Notes under the pieces: model-generated
The model's database searches: none
What the model was told of the DNA's origin: nothing
Seen by the model: the letters and a program-made list of their open reading frames with translations, nothing else
Part shown: positions 1,260 to 33,520 of the stretch, piece by piece
Position numbering within the stretch: position 1 is the stretch's first letter
How the letters are laid out: every line of letters starts with the position of its first letter
Made by a program: the position numbers and the translations under genes
Virus record (IMG/VR): IMGVR_UViG_2778261268_000004
Strand: one strand, 5' to 3'
Source of the DNA: a virus
Lineage: Duplodnaviria; Heunggongvirae; Uroviricota; Caudoviricetes
DNA: 39,727 bases

Positions 1260-1919
1260 CTATCCTTCCTGGACTTTGGTAAGCGTCAGATTTCCGCAGA
1301 ACACTGCGCCGGTGTCGATGTACATCTGGTTTGCATACACCAGTGGGTGATGTGCTGGCGTATGACCGAAGATGAACAAATCGGCACCGGTTATCTCCGA
1401 GACAATACCGTCCTGCGCGTCGCTAACCCGCTCACGATTCCATATCACCATTTCTTCTGGTACTGGCTTATCGAATGCGTATTCGTTGTGCGGGTAGTCT
1501 GCGTGACAGATGACGACCTTCTTATTGCCGGTAACCAGTTCGATAATCATCGGGAGGTTGGTAATCTTTGGCAGAAGGTATTTGAGTTGCACATCCTGCT
1601 CAGAATCAAGTTGGTGCCACCATCCACCGCCGTTTGACATCCAATGTCCGAAACTTCCGCCGTTGACCAGTGCATCCAGCATCATCTGCTCATGGTTGCC
1701 ACGAACAGCTCGGAACCACGGCATAGTAATCAAATCCAGGCATTCGACGTTTTCAGCGCCGCGGTCAACAAGGTCACCAACGGAAATAAGTAAATCGCGC
1801 GCCGGGTCGAATGAAACTTTGTCGAGTTCGTTCATCAGCAGCGTGTAGCACCCATGCAGATCGCCGACGACGAAGATATTGCACCAGTCAGCGCCATTGA
1901 TGCGTTGATATAGGTTCAT
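1260..1919 (-). CDS. Ser/Thr protein phosphatase, lambda-PPase-like metallophosphoesterase
   Basis: Motifs GDLHG, GDLVDRG, GNHE in MNLYQRING... protein; start at internal ATG 1919 chosen because the track ORF start lies inside the upstream gene. Confidence 0.85.
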
Positions 1920-2566
1920 GCTGCACGCTCCCGCCCCTGGTTGTCTATTGGTGACACCGGAGCATTGCTGAATGCATTTGTTAATCCGCCAATATCCAAC
2001 GCGTATCCAGGGTGTAGTTGCACTGCCGGGTCTTCGCACTGATTACCCCAAACATCGAAGCCATGAGACGACTGGCGGGCGAACAGTTCAATGCGAGAAA
2101 CATCGCCTAACAATTGCACAAGTTTTTCACGAACGACATCTGGTTTTCTTGAATGCTCAAGCCGCGGTGCGGTAAATGACTGAACGATCCCTGCATTAAT
2201 GCGCGTAGGTAGTTTTCCCTTAACTGCAAACAGGCAATCTTCACTATTGGCGCGAGTCATGTGCCCCATACCCATAACCAGTTTATCTGGTTGTCGACTA
2301 CCACATTTTATCCACGTGAAGCCCTTCATGGTCATCAGACGGAATCCCCAGGCTTCAACAACTTTTAGTGCTTCGAGTGGTTGTGTTGGCACCCACCACA
2401 TGGCCAACAGACAGTTTTCACCGGCCAAATCCCACACAGGAAGGCGGCAGATATCCAGCACACTCATAACAGGATATTTAAAGCCGGCACCGCGATTACC
2501 ATCTGCGGCTTTGTCCCGGTATACCCAGGGTGGATCTGCATAGATTAGTGTGTATTTCTTAGTCAT
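1916..2566 (-). CDS. MT-A70 family N6-adenine DNA methyltransferase (orphan)
   Basis: DPPW catalytic motif ([14 protein letters not shown]); stop overlaps phosphatase start by 4 nt; no restriction partner nearby. Confidence 0.8.
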
Positions 2567-2810
2567 AAACCACCCCACAACATCCTATGCCGCTATAGTC
2601 GCCACGGCGAAGGCCGTTACCTTTTGTGATACATTGGTCCCTGCGAACCGCGATCCTTGCACGCTCAACATCACCAGAAGCAACATCCATACACTGAAGC
2701 CAAAGGTGGGCGGCAATGCGGAACTGCCCTTTTTTCTCTCTTTCAATCGCGCGTTTTTCGATCTCTATCGCCGCAGGAGTAACGGCAACAACCTTTGAAT
2801 GGCTGCGCAT
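2559..2810 (-). CDS. Hypothetical small protein (start uncertain)
   Basis: Open frame in operon context between AlpA-like gene and methyltransferase; weak AAGG before ATG 2810; no recognisable motif. Confidence 0.3.
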   Translation of the reverse strand: MRSHSKVVAVTPAAIEIEKRAIEREKKGQFRIAAHLWLQCMDVASGDVERARIAVRRDQCITKGNGLRRGDYSGIGCCGVVYD

Positions 2811-2967
2811 TGAAACCTTGTTCATGTGATATTTTTCAAGTCGGCTTAACTTTCTCACTTAATCCAACCCTCTCTGAAAATTAATGCCAGCAGATAAAGC
2901 CATGCTGAAACAGAGGCCAGGAATAAGTACCATCCTGACCATTTGCTCCAGTGCCTTAGCAGCGCAC

Positions 2968-3216
2968 TCATGCAGCGTTGCTCACAGGACGATATACACG
3001 TTGCTGAACAGGAGGCTTTTTACCCTGGAACTCTGCCGGGCTTGCTGCCTGACGTTCATCAAGCCAACGCTCAACTTCATCACGGTTCCATGCGCAGCGT
3101 TTATCGGTGATATACCAGCGTTTAGGAAATTCCCCTGCGCGCTCCATACGGTCGATAGTGCTCCATGACAGTGGCACCACCGCCAGGAGTTCCTTCTTAC
3201 CTAATGCACCTTTCAT
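2968..3216 (-). CDS. AlpA-family DNA-binding protein (probable excisionase/regulator)
   Basis: LSWSTIDRMERAGEFPKRWYITDKRCAWNRDEVERWL matches the AlpA/Vis-type HTH pattern; GAGAGG RBS. Confidence 0.7.
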   Translation of the reverse strand: MKGALGKKELLAVVPLSWSTIDRMERAGEFPKRWYITDKRCAWNRDEVERWLDERQAASPAEFQGKKPPVQQRVYRPVSNAA

Positions 3217-3265
3217 AAATACCTCTCTTGGTTGCAGTGCGGCGCGCGTGGCGCCGCGGTGGTGG

Positions 3266-4147
3266 TTACATAGATGTTTCGTTTAATTCTTCCCGACGAA
3301 CGCTGTAAACGTCGGTGGCTTTTGCCAGCAGTTCGTCATCATCTGAAAGTTTTTGTGCAATGTATTTGTAAGCCTTATCCAGTTCGGAGACAGTGATGTA
3401 ATTCATCGCTGCGCTGGTAAAGGCCATCAGCATTTCTTCTGGATCACGGCTATCCGCTTTACGCGTTTGCTCATCAGGCTTTTTCGCTGGTTTAGCGTTG
3501 ATCAGACTGTTCATTCCCGCAGCAGTGGTCGTTTGCGGAGTAATGTCTCGCTCAACGCGCGGTGCCGTTTCCTGTAATTCGTCAGGGGTGTAAACACCGA
3601 GAAGTACATCAGGAGCGTGCAGGCGAGCCCATCGTTTCGTGCAAAGATAGGCAAGCTGCTGGCGCGGATCCTGTTCCCACAATGGAGAGTTACGCACTCC
3701 GGCTTGCGCCATACTGATGGTAAGCTCACGGGGTTCTGCTTCTCCTTTAAGAACTGCTGACACAGTTACCGTCAGATTCGGTGATTTATCTGTTTTGCCG
3801 TTAACATTCGACCAGTCACCGCTCCAGCGATAATTCAGGCGTGTCGCTAGCAGGCTGGAAGAGGATACGACCGCGTTTACCAACTGTGCTTCGTAGCCTA
3901 ACGTTCCGTTTACCACATGCGTTTTCTGCGCCACGGCGAAAGGATTCATTCCCCACTGTGCCGCCTGCATGGTCACCGCCAGACAATCGGCAGGTTCGCC
4001 TTTAAGATGTTTCGGTACAGTCGCTTTGCTTTGTGACATCAACTCCGCGAAACGCACCAGTTGATTCATGCCCTCCGGGCTGAAGATTGCCGCAGCAGTA
4101 CCTACAGTTGCGCCTGGTTGTGATGTGATTGCGATATCATTGCTCAT
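3266..4147 (-). CDS. Single-strand annealing protein, Red-beta/Bet-like
   Basis: C-terminal LCTKRWARLHAPDVLLGVYTPDE...ERDITP resembles lambda Bet; paired with an upstream exonuclease. Confidence 0.8.
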   Translation of the reverse strand: MSNDIAITSQPGATVGTAAAIFSPEGMNQLVRFAELMSQSKATVPKHLKGEPADCLAVTMQAAQWGMNPFAVAQKTHVVNGTLGYEAQLVNAVVSSSSLLATRLNYRWSGDWSNVNGKTDKSPNLTVTVSAVLKGEAEPRELTISMAQAGVRNSPLWEQDPRQQLAYLCTKRWARLHAPDVLLGVYTPDELQETAPRVERDITPQTTTAAGMNSLINAKPAKKPDEQTRKADSRDPEEMLMAFTSAAMNYITVSELDKAYKYIAQKLSDDDELLAKATDVYSVRREELNETSM

Positions 4148-6480: not shown

Positions 6481-6495
6481 TTACCGTTGAGGTAA
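6481..6495. promoter_or_regulatory. Operator-like palindrome TTACC-gttga-GGTAA (OL-like, site 1)
   Basis: Perfect 5-bp inverted half-sites; between leftward promoter and first leftward gene. Confidence 0.6.
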
Positions 6496-11990: not shown

Positions 11991-12031
11991 GAGTAGATTA
12001 TGCATGATGAATTTGACGGGTTTTGAATACT

Positions 12032-12058
12032 GCCGCCAACTATGGCGGCTTTATTTTG
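12032..12058 (+). terminator. Rho-independent terminator before the terminase genes
   Basis: GCCGCC-aacta-tGGCGGC followed by TTTATTTT. Confidence 0.65.
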
Positions 12059-12068
12059 CATGGTACTA

Positions 12069-12101
12069 TTACCACAACGGTAACTATTACCACGGTGGTT
12101 A
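12069..12101. promoter_or_regulatory. Tandem operator-like sites TTACC-acaac-GGTAA and TTACC-acggt-GGTTA upstream of terminase small subunit
   Basis: Direct repeat CTATTACCAC x2 forming one perfect and one imperfect palindrome. Confidence 0.45.
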
Positions 12102-12103
12102 TG

Positions 12104-12697
12104 ATGTCTGCTGAACCTAAAACCTATAAACGCAAATCAACGCAATTTAAGCCACTAACAGCAATGCAGGAGGCTTATTGCCAGTCATACATCAAAACGC
12201 CTGAAAACCAGACTCAGGCAGCGATTAACGCAGGATTCTCCCCAAATACAGCGGCAGTTAAAGCCAGTGTCATGATGCGCGATGAACGCATTCAAAAACG
12301 GATTGCCGAGTTGATGGAGGAGCGCAACAAACGAATGCGCGTCAGTGCTGATTACGTTCTCATGCGCCTGGTGGAGATCGACCAGATGGACGTGATCGAC
12401 ATCCTCAACGACGATGGGAGCCTTAAACCAATCCGTGAGTGGCCGAAAATCTGGCGCACTACGCTTAGTGGCTTTGATCTGTCATCGACCATCATGAACA
12501 TGAACGAGGATTCGATAGAGACAATCCTCAAAAAAATTAAATGGCCTGACAAGGTGAAGAACCTTGAGCTGATTGGTAAGCATGTTGATGTCAACGCGTT
12601 CAAAGAACGTCTGGATGTTAATGTGAATGTGACAATTGCTGATCGCATAGCAGCAGCCAGGAAGAGACTGAAAGAACGTCAGGATGGCAATCAGTGA
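12104..12697 (+). CDS. Terminase small subunit
   Basis: SPNTAAVKASVMMRDERIQKRIAELMEE pattern; ATG 12104 after GGTGG RBS; overlaps large subunit. Confidence 0.7.
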   Translation: MSAEPKTYKRKSTQFKPLTAMQEAYCQSYIKTPENQTQAAINAGFSPNTAAVKASVMMRDERIQKRIAELMEERNKRMRVSADYVLMRLVEIDQMDVIDILNDDGSLKPIREWPKIWRTTLSGFDLSSTIMNMNEDSIETILKKIKWPDKVKNLELIGKHVDVNAFKERLDVNVNVTIADRIAAARKRLKERQDGNQ

Positions 12698-14169
12698 CAG
12701 ATACAGCGTTATCTCCTGAAGAGCAGTTAATCGAGGATATTGCAGGGTTCACTCACGATCCGCTTGGCTATGCCCTCTATGCGTTCCCGTGGGGGGAAGA
12801 GGGTACTGAACTGGCACATGCCACCGGTCCACGTCAGTGGCAGGCCGATGCGTTCCGAGAGATACGTGATCACCTGCAGAATCCAGAGACGCGCTATCAG
12901 CCGCTTATGCTGGCACGCGCTTCTGGTCACGGTATTGGTAAATCCGCATTCATCTCAATGCTGATCAACTGGGGCATGTCCACTTGCGAGGATTGTAAGG
13001 TCGTGGTGACCGCCAACACCGACAACCAGCTACGAACGAAGACCTGGCCGGAAATTATCAAGTGGTCGAACCTTGCTATCACGAAAGAGTGGTTTACCTG
13101 TACCGCTACCGCGATGTACAGCAATGACCCTGGGCACGACAAGCGGTGGCGAGCTGACGCAATCCCCTGGTCTGAGCACAACACTGAGGCATTCGCCGGA
13201 CTACACAACGAGCGAAAACGCATCATCGTGGTATTCGATGAAGCGTCGAACATTGCGGATCTGGTGTGGGAAGTTGCTGAGGGTGCGCTTACGGACGAAG
13301 ACACTGAGATTATCTGGGTGGCGTTCGGAAACCCTACACGTAACACCGGACGTTTCCGCGAATGTTTCCGCAAATATAAACACCGCTGGAAAACTGCGCA
13401 GATTGACAGCCGAACGGTGGAAGGCACTAACAAACAGCAGTTGCAGAAATGGGTTGATGACTACGGGGAAGACAGCGACTTCGTTAAAATCCGTGTGCGC
13501 GGCATATTCCCTGATGCATCTGAATTGCAGTTTATCCCTACCGGTCTTACTGATGAGGCAATGAAACGGGTGGTAACCGCTGCGCAGGTGGCGCATGCTC
13601 CGGTGATAATCGGTGTTGACCCGGCATATTCAGGCGTTGATGACGCGGTGATATACCTGCGGCAGGGGCTACACAGTAAGGTGCTGTGGACTGGCAACAA
13701 GACTACCGACGATCTGATTATGGCGAAGCGTATCGCTGACTTTGAAGACCAGTATCAGGCTGACGCGGTGTTCATCGACTTCGGTTACGGAACCGGTCTG
13801 AAGTCAATCGGTGACGGATGGGGTCGTACATGGCAACTTGTTCCGTTCGGTGGCGCGTCTACTGACCCGCAGATGCTCAACAAGCGTGGGGAGATGTTCA
13901 ATTCATGCAAGACATGGCTGAGGCTGGGCGGCATGCTGGATGACCAGGAAACAGCAGACGACCTGTCGGCGGCAGAGTACAAAGTTCGAGTGGATGGTAA
14001 AATCGTTATCGAACCGAAGGAAGATATCAAGGAGCGGCTTGGGCGTTCGCCGGGTAAAGGCGATGCGCTACTGCTGACGTTTGCGTTCCCTGTGTCTAAG
14101 CGTCTGCGAATTCCCGGGCAGCAGAACCAGCAAGGCAAGGCCATCACAGATTACGATCCCTATGCTTAA
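12694..14169 (+). CDS. Terminase large subunit
   Basis: Walker A-like GHGIGKS, ATPase and nuclease regions (VFDEASN, GVDPA); 491 aa. Confidence 0.9.
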   Translation: MTDTALSPEEQLIEDIAGFTHDPLGYALYAFPWGEEGTELAHATGPRQWQADAFREIRDHLQNPETRYQPLMLARASGHGIGKSAFISMLINWGMSTCEDCKVVVTANTDNQLRTKTWPEIIKWSNLAITKEWFTCTATAMYSNDPGHDKRWRADAIPWSEHNTEAFAGLHNERKRIIVVFDEASNIADLVWEVAEGALTDEDTEIIWVAFGNPTRNTGRFRECFRKYKHRWKTAQIDSRTVEGTNKQQLQKWVDDYGEDSDFVKIRVRGIFPDASELQFIPTGLTDEAMKRVVTAAQVAHAPVIIGVDPAYSGVDDAVIYLRQGLHSKVLWTGNKTTDDLIMAKRIADFEDQYQADAVFIDFGYGTGLKSIGDGWGRTWQLVPFGGASTDPQMLNKRGEMFNSCKTWLRLGGMLDDQETADDLSAAEYKVRVDGKIVIEPKEDIKERLGRSPGKGDALLLTFAFPVSKRLRIPGQQNQQGKAITDYDPYA

Positions 14170-14199
14170 TCCGCTGGTTGGGATAATGTCGTTGATATC

Positions 14200-14243
14200 C
14201 TCTGATGAGGATAAAACAAAGCCAGCTCATCGGCTGGCTGTTT
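14200..14243 (-). terminator. Terminator hairpin after gp49-like gene
   Basis: GCCAGC-tcatcg-GCTGGC with T-rich run on the minus strand. Confidence 0.5.
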
Positions 14244-14255
14244 GTGACATGTCAC
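14244..14255. repeat. Perfect 12-bp palindrome GTGACATGTCAC (copy 2)
   Basis: Exact string; adjacent to hairpin 14221-14238. Confidence 0.9.
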
Positions 14256-14259
14256 GGTG

Positions 14260-14631
14260 TTATTGCTCGCTTAGCTTCTGCTTCAGCAAGTAACCTTCGA
14301 GCATCCAGATTTTGTTTACAGCATTCTGCCGGGCAATCTTCCGACCAATTTCTGCATCAAAGTTTTCCGGGCTTGCACAGGCGCTCTCTCCGGTGACGGT
14401 GAAGCCGTTGCGCAGCACCAGGACGCAGAACGTCAGCAGAGAAAGTGATTCGTGCGGCTGGTAGTTTACCTCTCCGCCAGTATGTTTCGCTTTTATGGCT
14501 TTGCCAAAGGCACCATCTTCTGCTGTGAAATATGCCTCCTGAGCAATAATGCCTTCGATATGGTCTGGCGTAACGCGCGGTGCCGTTTTGCCTTTCTCAA
14601 CGATTTCTTTTTCGATTTGCTGGTCGTTCAT
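14260..14631 (-). CDS. N4 gp49/Sf6 gp66-family protein (moron)
   Basis: 123-aa minus-strand ORF downstream of the tRNA with its own terminator; family call from remembered pattern. Confidence 0.6.
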   Translation of the reverse strand: MNDQQIEKEIVEKGKTAPRVTPDHIEGIIAQEAYFTAEDGAFGKAIKAKHTGGEVNYQPHESLSLLTFCVLVLRNGFTVTGESACASPENFDAEIGRKIARQNAVNKIWMLEGYLLKQKLSEQ

Positions 14632-14830
14632 AATCTCACCTTAAAAAAAATGCCCGGCGAACCAGGCGAACTGGAAGCAATGAGTTATGCCTTCCGTGGC
14701 TGTACTGGTTTACAGCATGAAGTCATCGCAATGGCGTCCTGCTGTAAAAAGGGCGGTGGTAGTCCTTCAAGGGAAACCATCACCGCCAAGCCTCTGGAAC
14801 TTCTGGCATCACGGTCCTTAGGCGTGATTC

Positions 14831-14907
14831 TGGCGTGGCATGCAGGATTCGAACCTGCGACCAACCGCTTAGAAGGCGGTTGCTCTGTCCAACTGAGCTA
14901 ATGCCAC
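14831..14907 (-). tRNA. tRNA-Arg (anticodon UCU)
   Basis: Cloverleaf folds by hand: acceptor GTGGCAT/ATGCCAC, D-stem GCTC/GAGC, anticodon stem ACCGC/GCGGT with loop CTTCTAA, T-arm GCAGG-TTCGAAT-CCTGC, discriminator G, encoded CCA. Confidence 0.85.
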
Positions 14908-15229
14908 AACGCTGAGAGCACTTAGCCTGTTAAGGCGCCACACTTTGTCGCGGCTCCATAAATGCTCTCATCGTTGTACCCTCGTCTCTTCCGAGGCGTC
15001 ACACCGAATCGCCGGGATGGTGAATCCCCGTGCGCGGAATAAAACCGCTCGACTTGCACATTCCGGCTACCTGGTTCGTTTGCCCGAGCAAGGGAGGGTG
15101 CCCCTTAAACGTATCCAGACCGCTATCGGCGCATGTGCCATACGCCGTACTGCTCAAAATAAAAGCTCACTCCACCTGTTCAATTTAACGACAAGCCAGT
15201 CAGGTTAATAACCGGAATGAACTCTTTGG

Positions 15230-15244
15230 TTACCTGAAAGGTAA
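15230..15244. promoter_or_regulatory. Operator-like palindrome TTACC-tgaaa-GGTAA upstream of the virion module
   Basis: Perfect half-sites; ATGTGGTT at 15289-15296 and GGTAAT at 15302-15307 nearby. Confidence 0.5.
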
Positions 15245-15334
15245 TAATTCGTGCGTTAAATGTCAACTATCTACGATAAATAAATCATATGTGGTTAAAT
15301 TGGTAATAATTTAATTGCGTACGGAGTCATTGAT

Positions 15335-15541
15335 ATGTGCATGGGTAGCTCACCGTCAGTGCCTGCAACACCAGAAGTTCAGGCAGCACCACAGGAGCAG
15401 GATGCCGCCGTTGTTGATGCCCGCGACGAAGAAACTCGTCGCCGTCGCGCTGCTGCTGGTCGTAGTTCTACGCTGCTTACCGGTTCTCAGGGTGACACAT
15501 CAACCGCTAATACCAGCGGTAAAACGCTGCTTGGTCAGTAA
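15335..15541 (+). CDS. Small virion-associated protein (T7 gp7.3-like composition)
   Basis: GGAG RBS 8 nt upstream; Ala/Arg/Gly-rich 68 aa; directly precedes portal. Confidence 0.45.
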   Translation: MCMGSSPSVPATPEVQAAPQEQDAAVVDARDEETRRRRAAAGRSSTLLTGSQGDTSTANTSGKTLLGQ

Positions 15542-15555
15542 CCGGAGTCATTGAA

Positions 15556-17235
15556 ATGGCGGAAACAACTAAAGAGCGATTGAACAAACAGTTCGCACAA
15601 CTTGAAAGCGAGCGTCAGTCGTTCGAGCCGCACTGGCGCGAGTTGAGTGATTACATCAACCCGCGTGGTTCCCGCTTTCTGACTTCTGAGGTCAACCGTA
15701 ACGATCGACGCAATACACGAATTATTGATTCGACCGGGACTATGGCAGCGCGCACTCTCGCCAGCGGCATGATGTCAGGCATCACAAGCCCCGCGCGTCC
15801 GTGGTTTCGCCTGGCTACGCCAGATCCTGAAATGATGGATTATGGCCCTGTTAAGTTGTGGCTTGAGGCGGTGCAGAACCGCATGAACGATATGTTCAAT
15901 AAGTCGAATCTCTATCAGTCGCTGCCGCAGTTATACGGAAGCCTCGGCACATACAGCACTGGTGCAATGGCAGTGCTGGAAGATGACGAGGACATTATTC
16001 GCACAATGCCATTCCCGATAGGCAGTTACTACCTGGCTAACTCACCTCGTGGAAGTGTGGACACCTGTTTTCGCAAGTTCTCTATGACTGTTCGTCAGCT
16101 TGTTCAGGAGTTCGGGCTAAATAACGTCAGCGAATCCGTAAAAAGCATGTGGGAAAGCGGCACCTACGAGAAGTGGATCGAAGTGATGCATTCGGTTTAC
16201 CCGAACATTGACCGCGATACATCGAAGCTGGATAGCAAGAACAAGCCATTCAAATCGGTTTATTACGAGGTTGGTGGCGATAACGACAAGTTGTTGCGTG
16301 AGTCCGGATTCGATGAGTTTCCAATTATGGCTCCGCGCTGGGAAGTTAACGGCGAAGATGTTTATGGATCATCATGCCCGGGTATGCTGGCGCTTGGACC
16401 TGTTAAGGCATTGCAGCTTCTCCAGAAGCGCAAGTCGCAGTTGATTGATAAAGCCACCAATCCGCCGATGGTTGCTCCGACTTCCCTCAAGAATCAGCGC
16501 GCCTCCCTTCTTCCTGGCGACATCACGTATATCGATCAGATTACTGGTCAGGATGGCTTCAGGCCTGCTTATCTGGTTAACCCCAGTACAGCAGATTTGG
16601 TGGCAGATATTCAGGACACTCGTCAAATCATTAACAGCGCCTACTTTGTCGATCTGTTCATGATGTTGCAGAACATCAATACCCGCTCGATGCCTGTTGA
16701 AGCGGTGATCGAAATGAAAGAAGAAAAACTTCTGATGTTGGGGCCGGTTCTGGAGCGTCTGAACGACGAATGTCTTAATCCTCTCATTGACCGCGCTTTC
16801 TCGATGATGGTGCGTAAAAACATGTTGCCGCCACCGCCTGACGCGATGGAAGGCATGCCCCTGAAGGTCGAATACATTTCCGTCATGGCTCAGGCGCAGA
16901 AGTCTATCGGCCTGTCCAGTCTGGCGTCCACGGTTAACTTCATTGGTCAACTTGCGCAAGCGAAACCAGAAGCTCTCGACAAACTCAACGTTGATCAGGC
17001 GATCGATGCATTCGCTGATATGTCTGGAGTGTCTCCAACCGTCATTGTTCCGCAGGAACAGGTTGAGCAGGCTCGCCAGCAACGGGCACAGCAGCAACAG
17101 CAGCAACAAATGATGGCGATGGGGATGGCGGCGGCACAGGGTGCCAAGACGCTAAGCGAAGCTAAAACTTCGGATCCGAGTGTTTTGTCAGCTATGGCGA
17201 ATGCAGTTAGTGGTCAGGGTGGGCAATCACAATGA
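15556..17235 (+). CDS. Portal / head-tail connector protein, T7 gp8-like
   Basis: 559 aa with C-terminal QQQQQMMAMGMAAAQG tail reminiscent of T7 gp8; position after terminase. Confidence 0.85.
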   Translation: MAETTKERLNKQFAQLESERQSFEPHWRELSDYINPRGSRFLTSEVNRNDRRNTRIIDSTGTMAARTLASGMMSGITSPARPWFRLATPDPEMMDYGPVKLWLEAVQNRMNDMFNKSNLYQSLPQLYGSLGTYSTGAMAVLEDDEDIIRTMPFPIGSYYLANSPRGSVDTCFRKFSMTVRQLVQEFGLNNVSESVKSMWESGTYEKWIEVMHSVYPNIDRDTSKLDSKNKPFKSVYYEVGGDNDKLLRESGFDEFPIMAPRWEVNGEDVYGSSCPGMLALGPVKALQLLQKRKSQLIDKATNPPMVAPTSLKNQRASLLPGDITYIDQITGQDGFRPAYLVNPSTADLVADIQDTRQIINSAYFVDLFMMLQNINTRSMPVEAVIEMKEEKLLMLGPVLERLNDECLNPLIDRAFSMMVRKNMLPPPPDAMEGMPLKVEYISVMAQAQKSIGLSSLASTVNFIGQLAQAKPEALDKLNVDQAIDAFADMSGVSPTVIVPQEQVEQARQQRAQQQQQQQMMAMGMAAAQGAKTLSEAKTSDPSVLSAMANAVSGQGGQSQ

Positions 17236-31746: not shown

Positions 31747-32379
31747 TTAATGCAGTTTATCTTTGCTTATAACCAGTAGTCTGTGGGTATGCACATCTTT
31801 ATCACTGCCCCAACAGAAATCAGCCCACTGGCTATAGAAATCATCCCATGATGTCATGAAGCTAAGAGGTCTATCTTCTTCAGAGCCATCTGAAACGTAT
31901 ACATTATATCCCGGGGTGTTTATAGCCCAAGAAATCATTCTTTCCCAGAATCTTCTCCCATCGATTGTTTGTTGCTCATCAGATACAACAATCGCATATT
32001 GCTCTAGGAAGAACTGAAAAAAAATCTGAGGCAAACCATGAACAGCACGGTCATGAATAACATTAGGCGTACGCCATACCATGATCTGCGTACATGTTCT
32101 TTTGGCTTCGACGATATCTTCCCGAAAGATTAACTTAACCGCATACACCGTTTCTGGAGTATCGCTGGTAGTAATCATTCTGTAATGATCGCCATTACAA
32201 GATTTTACAAGGCGATAACCATAAGGTGTTGTGAATCCCGGAAGAACGAAATCAACCACACCTTTCGCTAAGTAGCTTTCGGTGTGACTAGTGTTCTTCT
32301 CAGACATGTTCAGTTTTCTATCGAAATCTGCTTCTGGGATAATGTATGGCATCGCTTTTCTTGTTGTATTTGTTCTCAT
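31747..32379 (-). CDS. Unknown 210-aa accessory protein (moron)
   Basis: Strong GGGAGGA RBS 5 nt from ATG; own terminator (31721-31746); TTACC-N5-GGTAA operator upstream; no recognisable motif. Confidence 0.6.
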   Translation of the reverse strand: MRTNTTRKAMPYIIPEADFDRKLNMSEKNTSHTESYLAKGVVDFVLPGFTTPYGYRLVKSCNGDHYRMITTSDTPETVYAVKLIFREDIVEAKRTCTQIMVWRTPNVIHDRAVHGLPQIFFQFFLEQYAIVVSDEQQTIDGRRFWERMISWAINTPGYNVYVSDGSEEDRPLSFMTSWDDFYSQWADFCWGSDKDVHTHRLLVISKDKLH

Positions 32380-32525: not shown

Positions 32526-33236
32526 TCAGAAGAACCCTGCCTTGTCGTTGATGTACTCCGCGTGCGTCTGGATATCACGCAGGCATTTGCTCACACCGAC
32601 GATGTAGCAGAACATGGTGGTCAGTTCCGCCGCCGCGCCCGATACGTCGTGCCCGTCTTCCTGTAACTGGTTTAGCAGATTCATCAGCAGTGAGCTCTCC
32701 GTCAGGCCGAGAACACCAGACGGCGAATGAATCAGGCTACGGTAGCCTGGCTTCAGTGGGGCACTGTAGGTTTTGTTCTCTATCTTCATTGCCTGCATCA
32801 CTGCTGATGCTGTGGCGTTGGCTACCTGGTCGGCAACCATCTTTATGCGTTCTTCCTGCGGGAGCGAGTTTTTAATGTAACTTCCGGTGCGGCGGATCTG
32901 AGGAAGAACCTCACCTGTAACCCATTTACGAAAGCGGTAGGGGATAGTGCCTGGTGTCACCGCATCGCGGCAGCGGAGGATCAGTGTGTAGAGGCCTGAC
33001 TCGGAGATGATGTTGATCTCTTTTACTCGGCTATCAAAAATTGCACGATGTTCATGCCCTATGTTGAACATAGACCTTTCATCATCATCCAGTTTTTCAA
33101 GTGATTGGGTGACGTTTTGGATACGCAGCGCACTACAAACGTCTTGGGCTACAAACCATGGTTGGCCATCGATAATGATGGAACGGATAGGGTTAACAGA
33201 TTCAAATTTGAAGATGGCAGTTTGAGCATTAGCCAT
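32526..33236 (-). CDS. Bro-N domain antirepressor-like protein
   Basis: N-terminal FKFESVNPIRSIIIDGQPWFVAQDVCSAL...ESGLYTLILR Bro-N pattern; GGAGAT RBS. Confidence 0.75.
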   Translation of the reverse strand: MANAQTAIFKFESVNPIRSIIIDGQPWFVAQDVCSALRIQNVTQSLEKLDDDERSMFNIGHEHRAIFDSRVKEINIISESGLYTLILRCRDAVTPGTIPYRFRKWVTGEVLPQIRRTGSYIKNSLPQEERIKMVADQVANATASAVMQAMKIENKTYSAPLKPGYRSLIHSPSGVLGLTESSLLMNLLNQLQEDGHDVSGAAAELTTMFCYIVGVSKCLRDIQTHAEYINDKAGFF

Positions 33237-33253
33237 GGTGGTTATCTCCACTT

Positions 33254-33268: not shown

Positions 33269-33391
33269 CACCGCAACGCCAATTACTGGTGGTGAACTGG
33301 ACAAGGTTGGCGTACCGGCCTAAGTGGTACCGGCGTCCTTTCGGACCCCTGCCCAGCCCACCATAATTCGGATATGGCTGTGCTTAACGCA

Positions 33392-33414
33392 TAAAAAAAC
33401 CACGTCTGGCGTGG
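33392..33414 (-). terminator. Rho-independent terminator inside the antirepressor intergenic region
   Basis: CCACG-ccaga-CGTGG followed by TTTTTTT on the minus strand. Confidence 0.65.
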
Positions 33415-33505
33415 TATGCGCCACTTAGTAACTCGGGACGCCAATCCCGGCACTGGATTTTGCCAGTGCCCGATTACTATGGCACAAGAGGAGTGCGATG
33501 TAAAT

Positions 33506-33520
33506 TTACCGCAAAGGTAA
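33506..33520. promoter_or_regulatory. Operator-like palindrome TTACC-gcaaa-GGTAA
   Basis: Perfect half-sites in the antirepressor intergenic region. Confidence 0.45.

Follow-up and report, generated by a model that had tools for sequence, protein, structure and literature searches.

The 39,727-nt stretch of DNA analyzed here (IMG/VR record IMGVR_UViG_2778261268_000004), whose full length we call the window, comes from a phiV10/epsilon15-like podophage (Uetakevirus). An island on its minus strand separates the plus-strand small and large terminase genes (12023-14169; large terminase at 12694-14169 in the list of open reading frames, ORFs) from a plus-strand gp3-like small ORF and the portal gene (15335-17235; portal at 15556-17235, PF12236), and identity to phiV10 across this region is 96-99%. 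Read along the minus strand, the island consists of a promoter overlapped by an operator, a leader of ~80 nt, a structured core RNA, a long-range helix designated P6, a transfer RNA (tRNA) gene, tRNA-Arg(UCU), a conserved hairpin, two terminators (T1 and T2) and a gene of the Acb4 family, referred to as the cargo gene. The whole non-coding stretch ahead of the cargo gene is predicted to belong to one transcription unit, the untranslated RNA of which exceeds 500 nt. The subject of this analysis is the tract at 15150-14908 of the minus strand, which is almost certainly a structured RNA of ~243 nt representing a new family, formed by a 174-nt pseudoknotted core and the P6 helix. A preliminary description of this DNA had proposed that the tract upstream of the tRNA may be a leader, a degenerate tRNA or a small RNA. 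The leader and small-RNA proposals pointed in the right direction while understating what is present; the degenerate tRNA did not hold, as neither ARAGORN nor Rfam gives a tRNA-like signal in the tract.

The core domain, delimited from alignments and a covariance model named R1, is located at 14977-15150 on the minus strand. It begins with helix P1 (CGGCG-UAUGGCACAUG-CGCCG), which can be extended to 9 bp with a GCA loop, and continues with the long hairpin P2, whose closing strands are AGCGGUC and GGUAGCC, and with an invariant, single-stranded junction, GGUAGCCGGAAUGUGCAAG. The invariant unpaired segment of the core has a length of 19 nt. Since the next hairpin, P3, is not consistently stable among the members, we treated it as a variable linker. 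P4 is a 4-bp hairpin whose loop, either UUCACCA or CUAACCA, pairs with a downstream GGUG or GGUU to form a pseudoknot; the window has the UUCACCA loop paired with GGUG. The core ends with P5, a CCUCG-GAAGAGA-CGAGG hairpin. In the alignments, invariant blocks are separated by hairpins of varying sequence and length, with core lengths ranging from 148 to 180 nt; the GC content of the window core is 0.60. The unpaired segment, the conserved loops and the pseudoknot are maintained across phages of Escherichia, Salmonella, Klebsiella, Citrobacter, Kosakonia and Erwinia.

Support for the fold was obtained from a MAFFT alignment of 26 diverse members, which was built without reference to structure. 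In this alignment, 96.4% of the cells at the proposed pairs hold standard pairs, compared with 27-46% in slid controls, and 11 pairs (64 cells) are altered on both sides in a compensatory manner; the observed covariation score was equaled in none of 500 shuffles. An independent set, collected from species-representative genomes with a different sequence pattern, showed 96.6% pairing and 10 compensatory pairs. The frequent G-U pairs identify the window minus strand as the sense strand of the RNA. The GCACAU/AUGUGC pairing suggested by RNAalifold and a helix that GCC and GGC might form to close the structure are both invariant, so that covariation says nothing for or against them. With the R1 model, we found one copy of the core in the window, at 15150-14977 (137.7 bits, E=1e-44; the window sequence is part of the seed), and no second copy; the scores of independent members range from 105 to 158 bits. 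Given the 72-99% identity of the tract in other phages and its covariation-supported fold, the tract stands far beyond chance.

The core does not correspond to any family in Rfam 15. At E values up to 10, no family was found over the core or P6 in the window tract, where the sole match was a chance-level one to ceN46 (14.4 bits, E=9.2), and nothing relevant was found in a lambdoid version. Similarly, at gathering score, the only families found in 15 related loci were tRNA, C4 and isrK, all located elsewhere than the core. The Rfam check proposed in the preliminary description thus confirmed the tRNA and left the tract upstream of it without a family. A full-text literature search with the invariant sequences and keywords retrieved no description of this RNA, an earlier account in a subscription journal being possible. 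The tract also lacks a conserved reading frame, in agreement with the earlier statement that no plausible ORF precedes the tRNA: 14908-15230 contains only short ORFs, each frame is open in at most 9 of the 26 homologues, and the lengths of these show no 3-nt periodicity.

Downstream of the core, P6 (14908-14976, minus strand) is a long-range helix between CAACGAUGAGAGCAUU and AGUGCUCUCAGCGUUG that encloses a variable insert (38-172 nt among the phages) and runs up to the first base of the tRNA. Based on covariation, its pairing reaches 90.4%, compared with 40-61% in slid controls, with 4 compensatory pairs. The 3′ strand of P6 carries a boxA-like UGCUCU(C/U) sequence, which in the window reads UGCUCUC and lies inside the helix. 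The adjoining tRNA-Arg(UCU) at 14831-14907 (minus strand), described previously as intact, is the only tRNA called by ARAGORN in the window (anticodon TCT); its CCA end is encoded, and it scores 73.3 bits with the Rfam tRNA model RF00005 against a gathering score of 29. The phiV10 RefSeq record (NC_007804) does not annotate this tRNA.

A true tRNA is lacking in most homologues. An epsilon15-like locus is among the many relatives whose slot is filled by a tRNA-like module for which ARAGORN makes no call. The module comprises a stem resembling that of the acceptor (GUGGUGA/UCACCAC, with A-A-CC(A/C) behind it), a D-like arm (GCGC-AGGCUGAU-GCGC, with variants GCCC/GGGC, GGCG/CGCC and GCAC/GUGC), a long variable insert at the position of the anticodon arm, and a T-like arm (GCCGG-AGAUCAGCA-CCGGY, with variants GCUGG/CCAGC and GUCGG/CCGAC); its arms vary in a compensatory manner. 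A separate case is locus L096, in which a 120-nt element situated ~120 nt past P6, GGTTTAGCTTAATCGGGTAGAGCG ... GTGGGTTCGAATCCCAC, bears the D-arm and T-arm hallmarks of a real tRNA and receives no ARAGORN call; possibly it represents a tRNA with an interruption, or a transitional form linking tRNA and tRNA-like module.

Directly 3′ of the tRNA, a hairpin recognized by its conservation, AUCACG-CCUAAGGAC-CGUGAU (14808-14828, minus strand), precedes T1, a terminator-like hairpin (GGCGGUGAUGG...CUACCACCGCC) with five U residues (14746-14787, minus strand). The former is not formed in the single-sequence fold of the window. Both are kept behind the tRNA and the tRNA-like versions alike, and T1, visible in the fold, is homologous to GGCGGUACCAG...CUGGUACCGC-UCUUUUU of lambdoid loci. 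T2, which is supported by both folding and terminator prediction, is a strong intrinsic terminator (GCCUGG UUCG CCGGGC plus U8; 14644-14667, minus strand, with the stem at 14667-14652) located 15 nt upstream of the start codon of the cargo gene, whose ribosome-binding site follows directly; a T2-like terminator is present in some lambdoid versions too, such as that of L040.

Some relatives depart from this arrangement. In L087 and L044, and possibly in L031, a convergent gene takes the place of P6 and the tRNA-like module, and in all three a terminator follows at once behind the core. L087 carries the exact rrn boxA, TGCTCTTTAACAA, behind a hairpin ~30-45 nt past the core, and L044 carries the boxA-related GCTCTTTAA at the same distance; a similar sequence, AGCTCTTTAA, appears to occupy this position in L031. 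An alternative conserved 3′ module, AUCAGCCAUUCACG.UAAGCAUC...GUGCUUAGCGGGACUGGAAGAGUUACCACUUGGAGACGGUCC, is inserted behind P5 in five other loci (L034, L035, L063, L073 and L096), and in L063 and L073 it is followed by a second P5-like hairpin and P6.

At its upstream end, the unit has a putative sigma-70-type promoter (15238-15266, minus strand), with a -35 element TTGACA (15266-15261), a 17-nt spacer and a -10 element TACCTT (15243-15238). The weak -10 element falls below the threshold of the promoter scanner; the -35 element, the spacing and the -10 element are kept in the Salmonella, Klebsiella and epsilon15 relatives. A candidate operator palindrome, TTACCTGAAAGGTAA (15230-15244), extends across the -10 element and the presumed transcription start site, and its epsilon15 counterpart carries the annotation "repressor; lysogeny". 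The TTACC-N5-GGTAA palindrome occurs 13 times in the window, compared with 0.69 copies expected (positions 6481, 6543, 7255, 7303, 9586, 9648, 12069, 12087, 15230, 32439, 33506, 33886 and 36531), and most copies are found in gaps between long ORFs; two fall within the start of the small terminase ORF. The operators of C1 of phage P1 are likewise dispersed over the genome. This distribution suggests that a single repressor controls many scattered promoters in the window phage. The 5′ leader (15151-15231, minus strand), as read from the sequence, extends over ~80 nt from the presumed start to helix P1 and contains a hairpin (15215-15196) and a AGUGAGCUUU motif. Leaders differ among the phage groups; transcription is presumed to start only a few nucleotides away from helix P1 in several loci, and right at this helix in some lambdoids.

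The cargo gene (14260-14631, minus strand) encodes a protein of family PF13876, Phage_gp49_66 (N4 gp49/Sf6 gp66), with a score of 119.5 bits against a cutoff of 27 and a match to profile positions 1-82 of 82; the terminator and the gp49/gp66-family gene of the preliminary description are thus both borne out, the former as T2. PF13876 has been equated with the Acb4 family of nucleotide sponges (bioRxiv 10.1101/2024.12.30.630793), which counteract the cyclic-oligonucleotide-based antiphage signaling system (CBASS). Identity to the solved SPO1 Acb4 (PDB 9e4w) is low, and the direct match is weak (E=0.006); from its family, the cargo protein is predicted to be an Acb4-family sponge of CBASS cyclic-nucleotide signals. 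When relatives that carry another cargo are compared with the window, homology begins at about T2, and an epsilon15-like phage of Klebsiella has a Tad2-like gene (PF11195) behind this terminator. The exchange of cargo behind a conserved cassette indicates that the slot behind T2 is an exchangeable anti-defense position. The likeness to the Acb4 and Tad2 sponges concerns the cargo gene alone.

The cargo gene had previously been regarded as a moron. We found no support for this assignment: the operator palindrome lies over part of the sole promoter upstream, the position of T2 directly ahead of the ribosome-binding site leaves no room for a promoter of the cargo gene itself, and PF13876 is the Acb4 family. 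Because the unit starts at an operator-overlapped promoter, the island reads as an early, repressed module, and its cargo is more likely an early anti-defense gene than a lysogenic-conversion gene.

Codon usage did not bear out the idea that the AGA-decoding tRNA serves the late genes. AGA is moderately enriched, at 6.6 per 1000 codons in the window ORFs, its usage in E. coli being ~2 per 1000, and its frequency is 4.6 per 1000 in the terminase-to-tail block versus 8.3 per 1000 in the non-structural genes. Plausibly, tRNA-Arg(UCU) also serves decoding, not preferentially that of the late genes. The ORF at 31747-32379 (minus strand; 210 codons, no Pfam match) contains 10 AGA codons (47.6 per 1000), which makes it the strongest potential client of this tRNA.

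A sensitive BLAST search with the tract retrieved two groups of phages. The first comprises epsilon15-like phages of E. coli, Salmonella, Klebsiella and Enterobacter (72-99% identity); in the second, a ~245-bp unannotated segment with 83% identity is present in many lambdoids (cdtI, mEp460, Stx2c and some Stx2a phages). Additionally, the tract is ~80% identical to DNA of phage P1, which itself carries the core, unannotated, at 71021-71200 of NC_005856; the 286-bp gap between trnI and ban that holds it (71009-71294) has no annotated feature in this heavily annotated genome. Matches were found in 1840 of 5426 complete E. coli genomes, i.e., about a third, with up to 4 copies per genome, and 554 match places are on plasmids, the single one inspected being P1-like. 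The element has apparently never been annotated: the RefSeq and GenBank records inspected show either nothing or dubious coding sequences (CDSs) over it.

The R1 model yielded 101 matches in 100 loci, mostly IMG/VR contigs, one of which (L025) has two tandem copies, and 27 matches in 34 further loci (pattern matches on genome contigs plus P1, E. coli and Stx2a-phage loci). These 27 all belong to Enterobacterales or their phages, except for one 1.7-kb contig labeled Bacillota, which is probably mis-binned. Six pattern matches outside the Enterobacterales (Pirellulaceae, Clostridia, Steroidobacteraceae, Bacteroidota, Clostridiales and Acidovorax) found no confirmation with the covariance model and were discarded as chance matches. 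No R1 homologue was found in the K-12 CPS-53 prophage.

Three genomic contexts were distinguished. In the epsilon15-like phages, including the window, the unit begins at the TTGACA-17 nt-TACCTT promoter with the operator over its -10 element. In lambdoid prophages with many cI alleles, the order is cI, a terminator, OL/PL, the core, further RNA modules and the early-left genes; in one of them (L130), the promoter, TTGACA-16-CATAAT, bears the operator motif of OR. In phage P1, the order is Pban (Op72), a dicF-like region, trnA, trnT, ..., tciABC, trnI, the core and ban; here, the core lies ~2.3 kb from Pban, directly behind tRNA-Ile, and P6 is missing. In all three contexts, the RNA is part of a repressor-controlled early transcript. 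Among the first ORFs inspected downstream of the core, we found no N-like (arginine-rich) protein. In another lambdoid locus, L090, the order is cI, PL, core-P6-tRNA-like module, a terminator, xis (PF07825) and int, the terminator having an 11-bp stem (-24 kcal/mol) followed by U5. L025 (oriented 2500-4060) carries its two cores in tandem, the second being diverged (113 bits), and behind each lies a convergent ORF (166 and 163 amino acids) that looks hydrophobic and membrane-protein-like by its N-terminal sequence; this looks like repeated moron insertion behind a PL leader. In epsilon15 (NC_004775), only a 5′ remnant of the core persists at 1583-1673 (minus strand; 91-nt match, 32.9 bits); the rest of the core, P6 and the tRNA are lost, T2 and the gp49-like gene are retained, and an extra upstream insert is annotated as an RNase III site.

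Based on this architecture, we tentatively favor the possibility that the core is a cis-acting antitermination leader, similar in function to the put elements without belonging to their family, although we hold it at somewhat less than an even chance. The core would act on the RNA polymerase that transcribes it, making it resistant to T1, T2 and further downstream terminators. Only transcripts from the derepressed early promoter would then reach the cargo, i.e., the Acb4-family gene in the window phage and xis-int or other early-left genes in lambdoids. Host Nus factors may assist through the boxA-like UGCUCU in the 3′ strand of P6. The tRNA or tRNA-like module would provide a built-in RNase P site separating the RNA from the downstream message, with the tRNA of the window phage additionally supplying an AGA decoder.

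Several features led us to this preference. The core is the first structured element of the early transcripts. T1 and T2 are conserved in the cassette and T2 stands directly before the ribosome-binding site, from which it would follow that an early sponge, needed in abundance, is made only by read-through. The only route from PL to xis and int in L090 crosses the terminator with the 11-bp stem and U5. The first downstream ORFs inspected are devoid of an N-like protein. Finally, the 3′ strand of P6 is boxA-like, and boxA or a related sequence occurs in L087 and L044.

Nevertheless, a number of observations weigh against antitermination. The element occurs once per phage, with none on the PR side, unlike the putL and putR pair. 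The one strong terminator of the P1 ban operon precedes the core, and the stretch from the core to ban contains none. A crude count of terminators downstream of the core gave 1.14 per kb against a background of 0.84 per kb, which is not clearly higher; the detector is not discriminating, and this count was not used as support. Generic boxA is not enriched (3 of 103 loci), and the boxA-like segment is base-paired within P6. The tRNA or tRNA-like punctuation and the tandem units fit a discrete, released stable RNA at least equally well, and epsilon15 has lost most of the core and the tRNA yet keeps T2 and the gene.

The closest functional parallel to such a leader is put of phage HK022, which is likewise an RNA-only element located just after a repressor-controlled early promoter in N-less lambdoids with terminators before the early genes. 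Unlike the new RNA, put has ~70 nt and two stem-loops and is present at both PL and PR; the RNA described here has a core of 150-180 nt with at least 4 helices and a pseudoknot, to which P6 and the tRNA or tRNA-like module are added, and it occurs once per phage. A search with R1 of HK022 segment 27600-36000 (from IS903 to past gene O), where we take putL and putR to lie, revealed no homologue, with a best score of 2.2 bits. Membership in the put family was rejected on these grounds of size, fold, copy pattern and lack of an R1 match in the HK022 segment, and any resemblance is functional rather than one of family. The put RNA still works when untethered from the transcript (PMC9378689), which is compatible with an RNase P cut at the tRNA in the new RNA.

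With the nut and rrn systems, the likeness is one of position and composition. The RNA shares with nutL of lambda the location directly after PL, and, as in the rrn operons, the unit is untranslated and contains a tRNA. A search for a single-stranded boxA consensus of the GCUCUUUA type identified only the UGCUCUC sequence within P6 in the window, and the exact boxA in L087; the related sequence of L044 is in the same place as that of L087. Unlike those systems, the new RNA is accompanied by no N-like protein in the first downstream ORFs inspected, no boxB-N pair was recognized, and its boxA-like segment is paired.

In the main rival explanation, a discrete and stable RNA acting in trans would be formed by the core, either alone or together with P6. 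Enzymes of tRNA processing would release it, for example RNase P by cutting where the tRNA or tRNA-like module begins, and it would act on a conserved host or defense component, for instance as a decoy or sponge in anti-defense or host takeover, with T1 and T2 being its own terminators. We regard this as unlikely, though to be taken seriously. The exact abutment of the tRNA on P6 is in line with it, as are the acceptor-, D- and T-like arms of the tRNA-like module with their compensatory variation. In P1 and L140 the core is immediately preceded by a tRNA or tRNA-like module, which, like the tandem cores of L025 and the terminators at once behind the core in L087, L031 and L044, also fits a discrete unit. 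Furthermore, the neighboring cargo genes are anti-defense sponges, and the long invariant unpaired stretches suggest a conserved binding partner. On the other hand, we found no convincing antisense target in the window, where the complements of the invariant loops are their own opposite strand and weak chance duplexes; the RNA nearly always opens an operon in which the genes behind it require read-through; and no stable RNA species is reported in the literature searched.

Known systems offer partial analogies for such a release. P1/P7 C4, P4 CI and isrK are phage regulatory RNAs matured by RNase P from longer early transcripts, and C4 and isrK are carried by the same three phage types as the new RNA, including lambdoid loci that have it. 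The new RNA differs from them in its larger size and different fold, with no Rfam match to C4 or isrK and no antisense target found in the window. In MALAT1-mascRNA, a long non-coding RNA undergoes tRNA-like 3′-end processing, and T4 produces stable RNAs that are embedded in tRNA operons and co-transcribed with the tRNAs. As in these cases, a structured RNA is found immediately upstream of a possible RNase P signal, the tRNA or tRNA-like module; the likeness is conceptual, with no sequence or structure relationship.

It is improbable that the tract is only a processing or stability leader that shields the long untranslated, tRNA-containing transcript (in P1, the ban message that remains once the tRNA has been cut out) against RNase E or Rho and aids tRNA maturation. 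Its position at the 5′ end of the transcript next to the tRNA or tRNA-like module, and in P1 directly between tRNA-Ile and ban, is what would be expected of such a leader, and an untranslated RNA of this length would be exposed to Rho. A simple protective structure, however, does not account for an invariant unpaired stretch of 19 nt, nor for the conserved loops or the pseudoknot, and a true tRNA is missing from most homologues.

Still less probable is a role of the core as a riboswitch that senses a ligand or as a self-cleaving ribozyme of a new kind. The compact pseudoknotted fold with invariant junctions is reminiscent of both, and ribozymes linked to phage tRNAs are known, namely the "theta" ribozymes, which resemble that of hepatitis delta virus (HDV). 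No riboswitch or ribozyme in Rfam matches it at E values up to 10, however; the nearest terminators are more than 150 nt away, past P6 and the tRNA, which leaves no adjacent expression platform; and the helix order, in our own reading of the structure, is unlike the HDV topology. That the tract is protein-coding, a degenerate tRNA or a DNA site such as pac or att is very improbable: some records do place CDSs over it (mEp460 gp37) or over the tRNA region (phiV10p04), but no frame is widely open, the indels are not multiples of three, there is no tRNA-like signal, the compensatory changes and the abundance of G-U pairs point to an RNA that is single-stranded and has a defined polarity, and the element is at unrelated genome positions in the three phage types. 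The CDSs in question, phiV10p04 (2672-2923, plus strand, of the phiV10 record) and gp37 in the gp36/gp37 region of mEp460, are annotated opposite the tRNA/RNA strand and are probably spurious.

Taken with the known systems, the RNA is a new family, probably of the phage early-leader or antitermination kind, with a substantial chance that it is something more unusual than an antitermination leader. There is close to an even chance, in our estimate, that the core would be the founder of a class of large phage RNAs, new to science, by which a conserved host machine is bound and reprogrammed, either RNA polymerase or a defense or RNA-processing component, within a modular array released by RNase P at a tRNA or tRNA-like element. 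If the host target were RNA polymerase, this would mean a second, structurally unrelated class of RNA-only processive antiterminator.

If confirmed, these results would add a widespread conserved structured RNA to P1, epsilon15/phiV10, the SfV/e14-type lambdoids and some Stx2 phages. For N-less lambdoids, antitermination by this RNA is a candidate answer to how early-left transcription, including that of xis-int, is carried past terminators. That relatives fill the tRNA-Arg slot with a tRNA-like module suggests that some phage tRNAs double as RNA-processing punctuation. The portable early cassette of promoter-operator, RNA, tRNA and terminators, placed before swappable sponges (Acb4, Tad2-like), could additionally aid in finding anti-defense genes.

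Two other features of the window complete its description. Between the convergent terminase and cargo genes, a terminator hairpin, AGCCAGCCGATGAGCTGGCT (14220-14239), was predicted on the minus strand; phiV10 annotates the same site as a plus-strand terminator, and it is apparently bidirectional. At 33285-33469 (minus strand), just downstream of the palindrome at 33506, Rfam identifies isrK (67.2 bits) and C4 antisense RNA (66 bits), and these are followed by a Bro-N domain protein (ORF 32526-33251, minus strand). This arrangement is an RNA-controlled antirepressor module like immI of phage P1, here in an epsilon15-like podophage.

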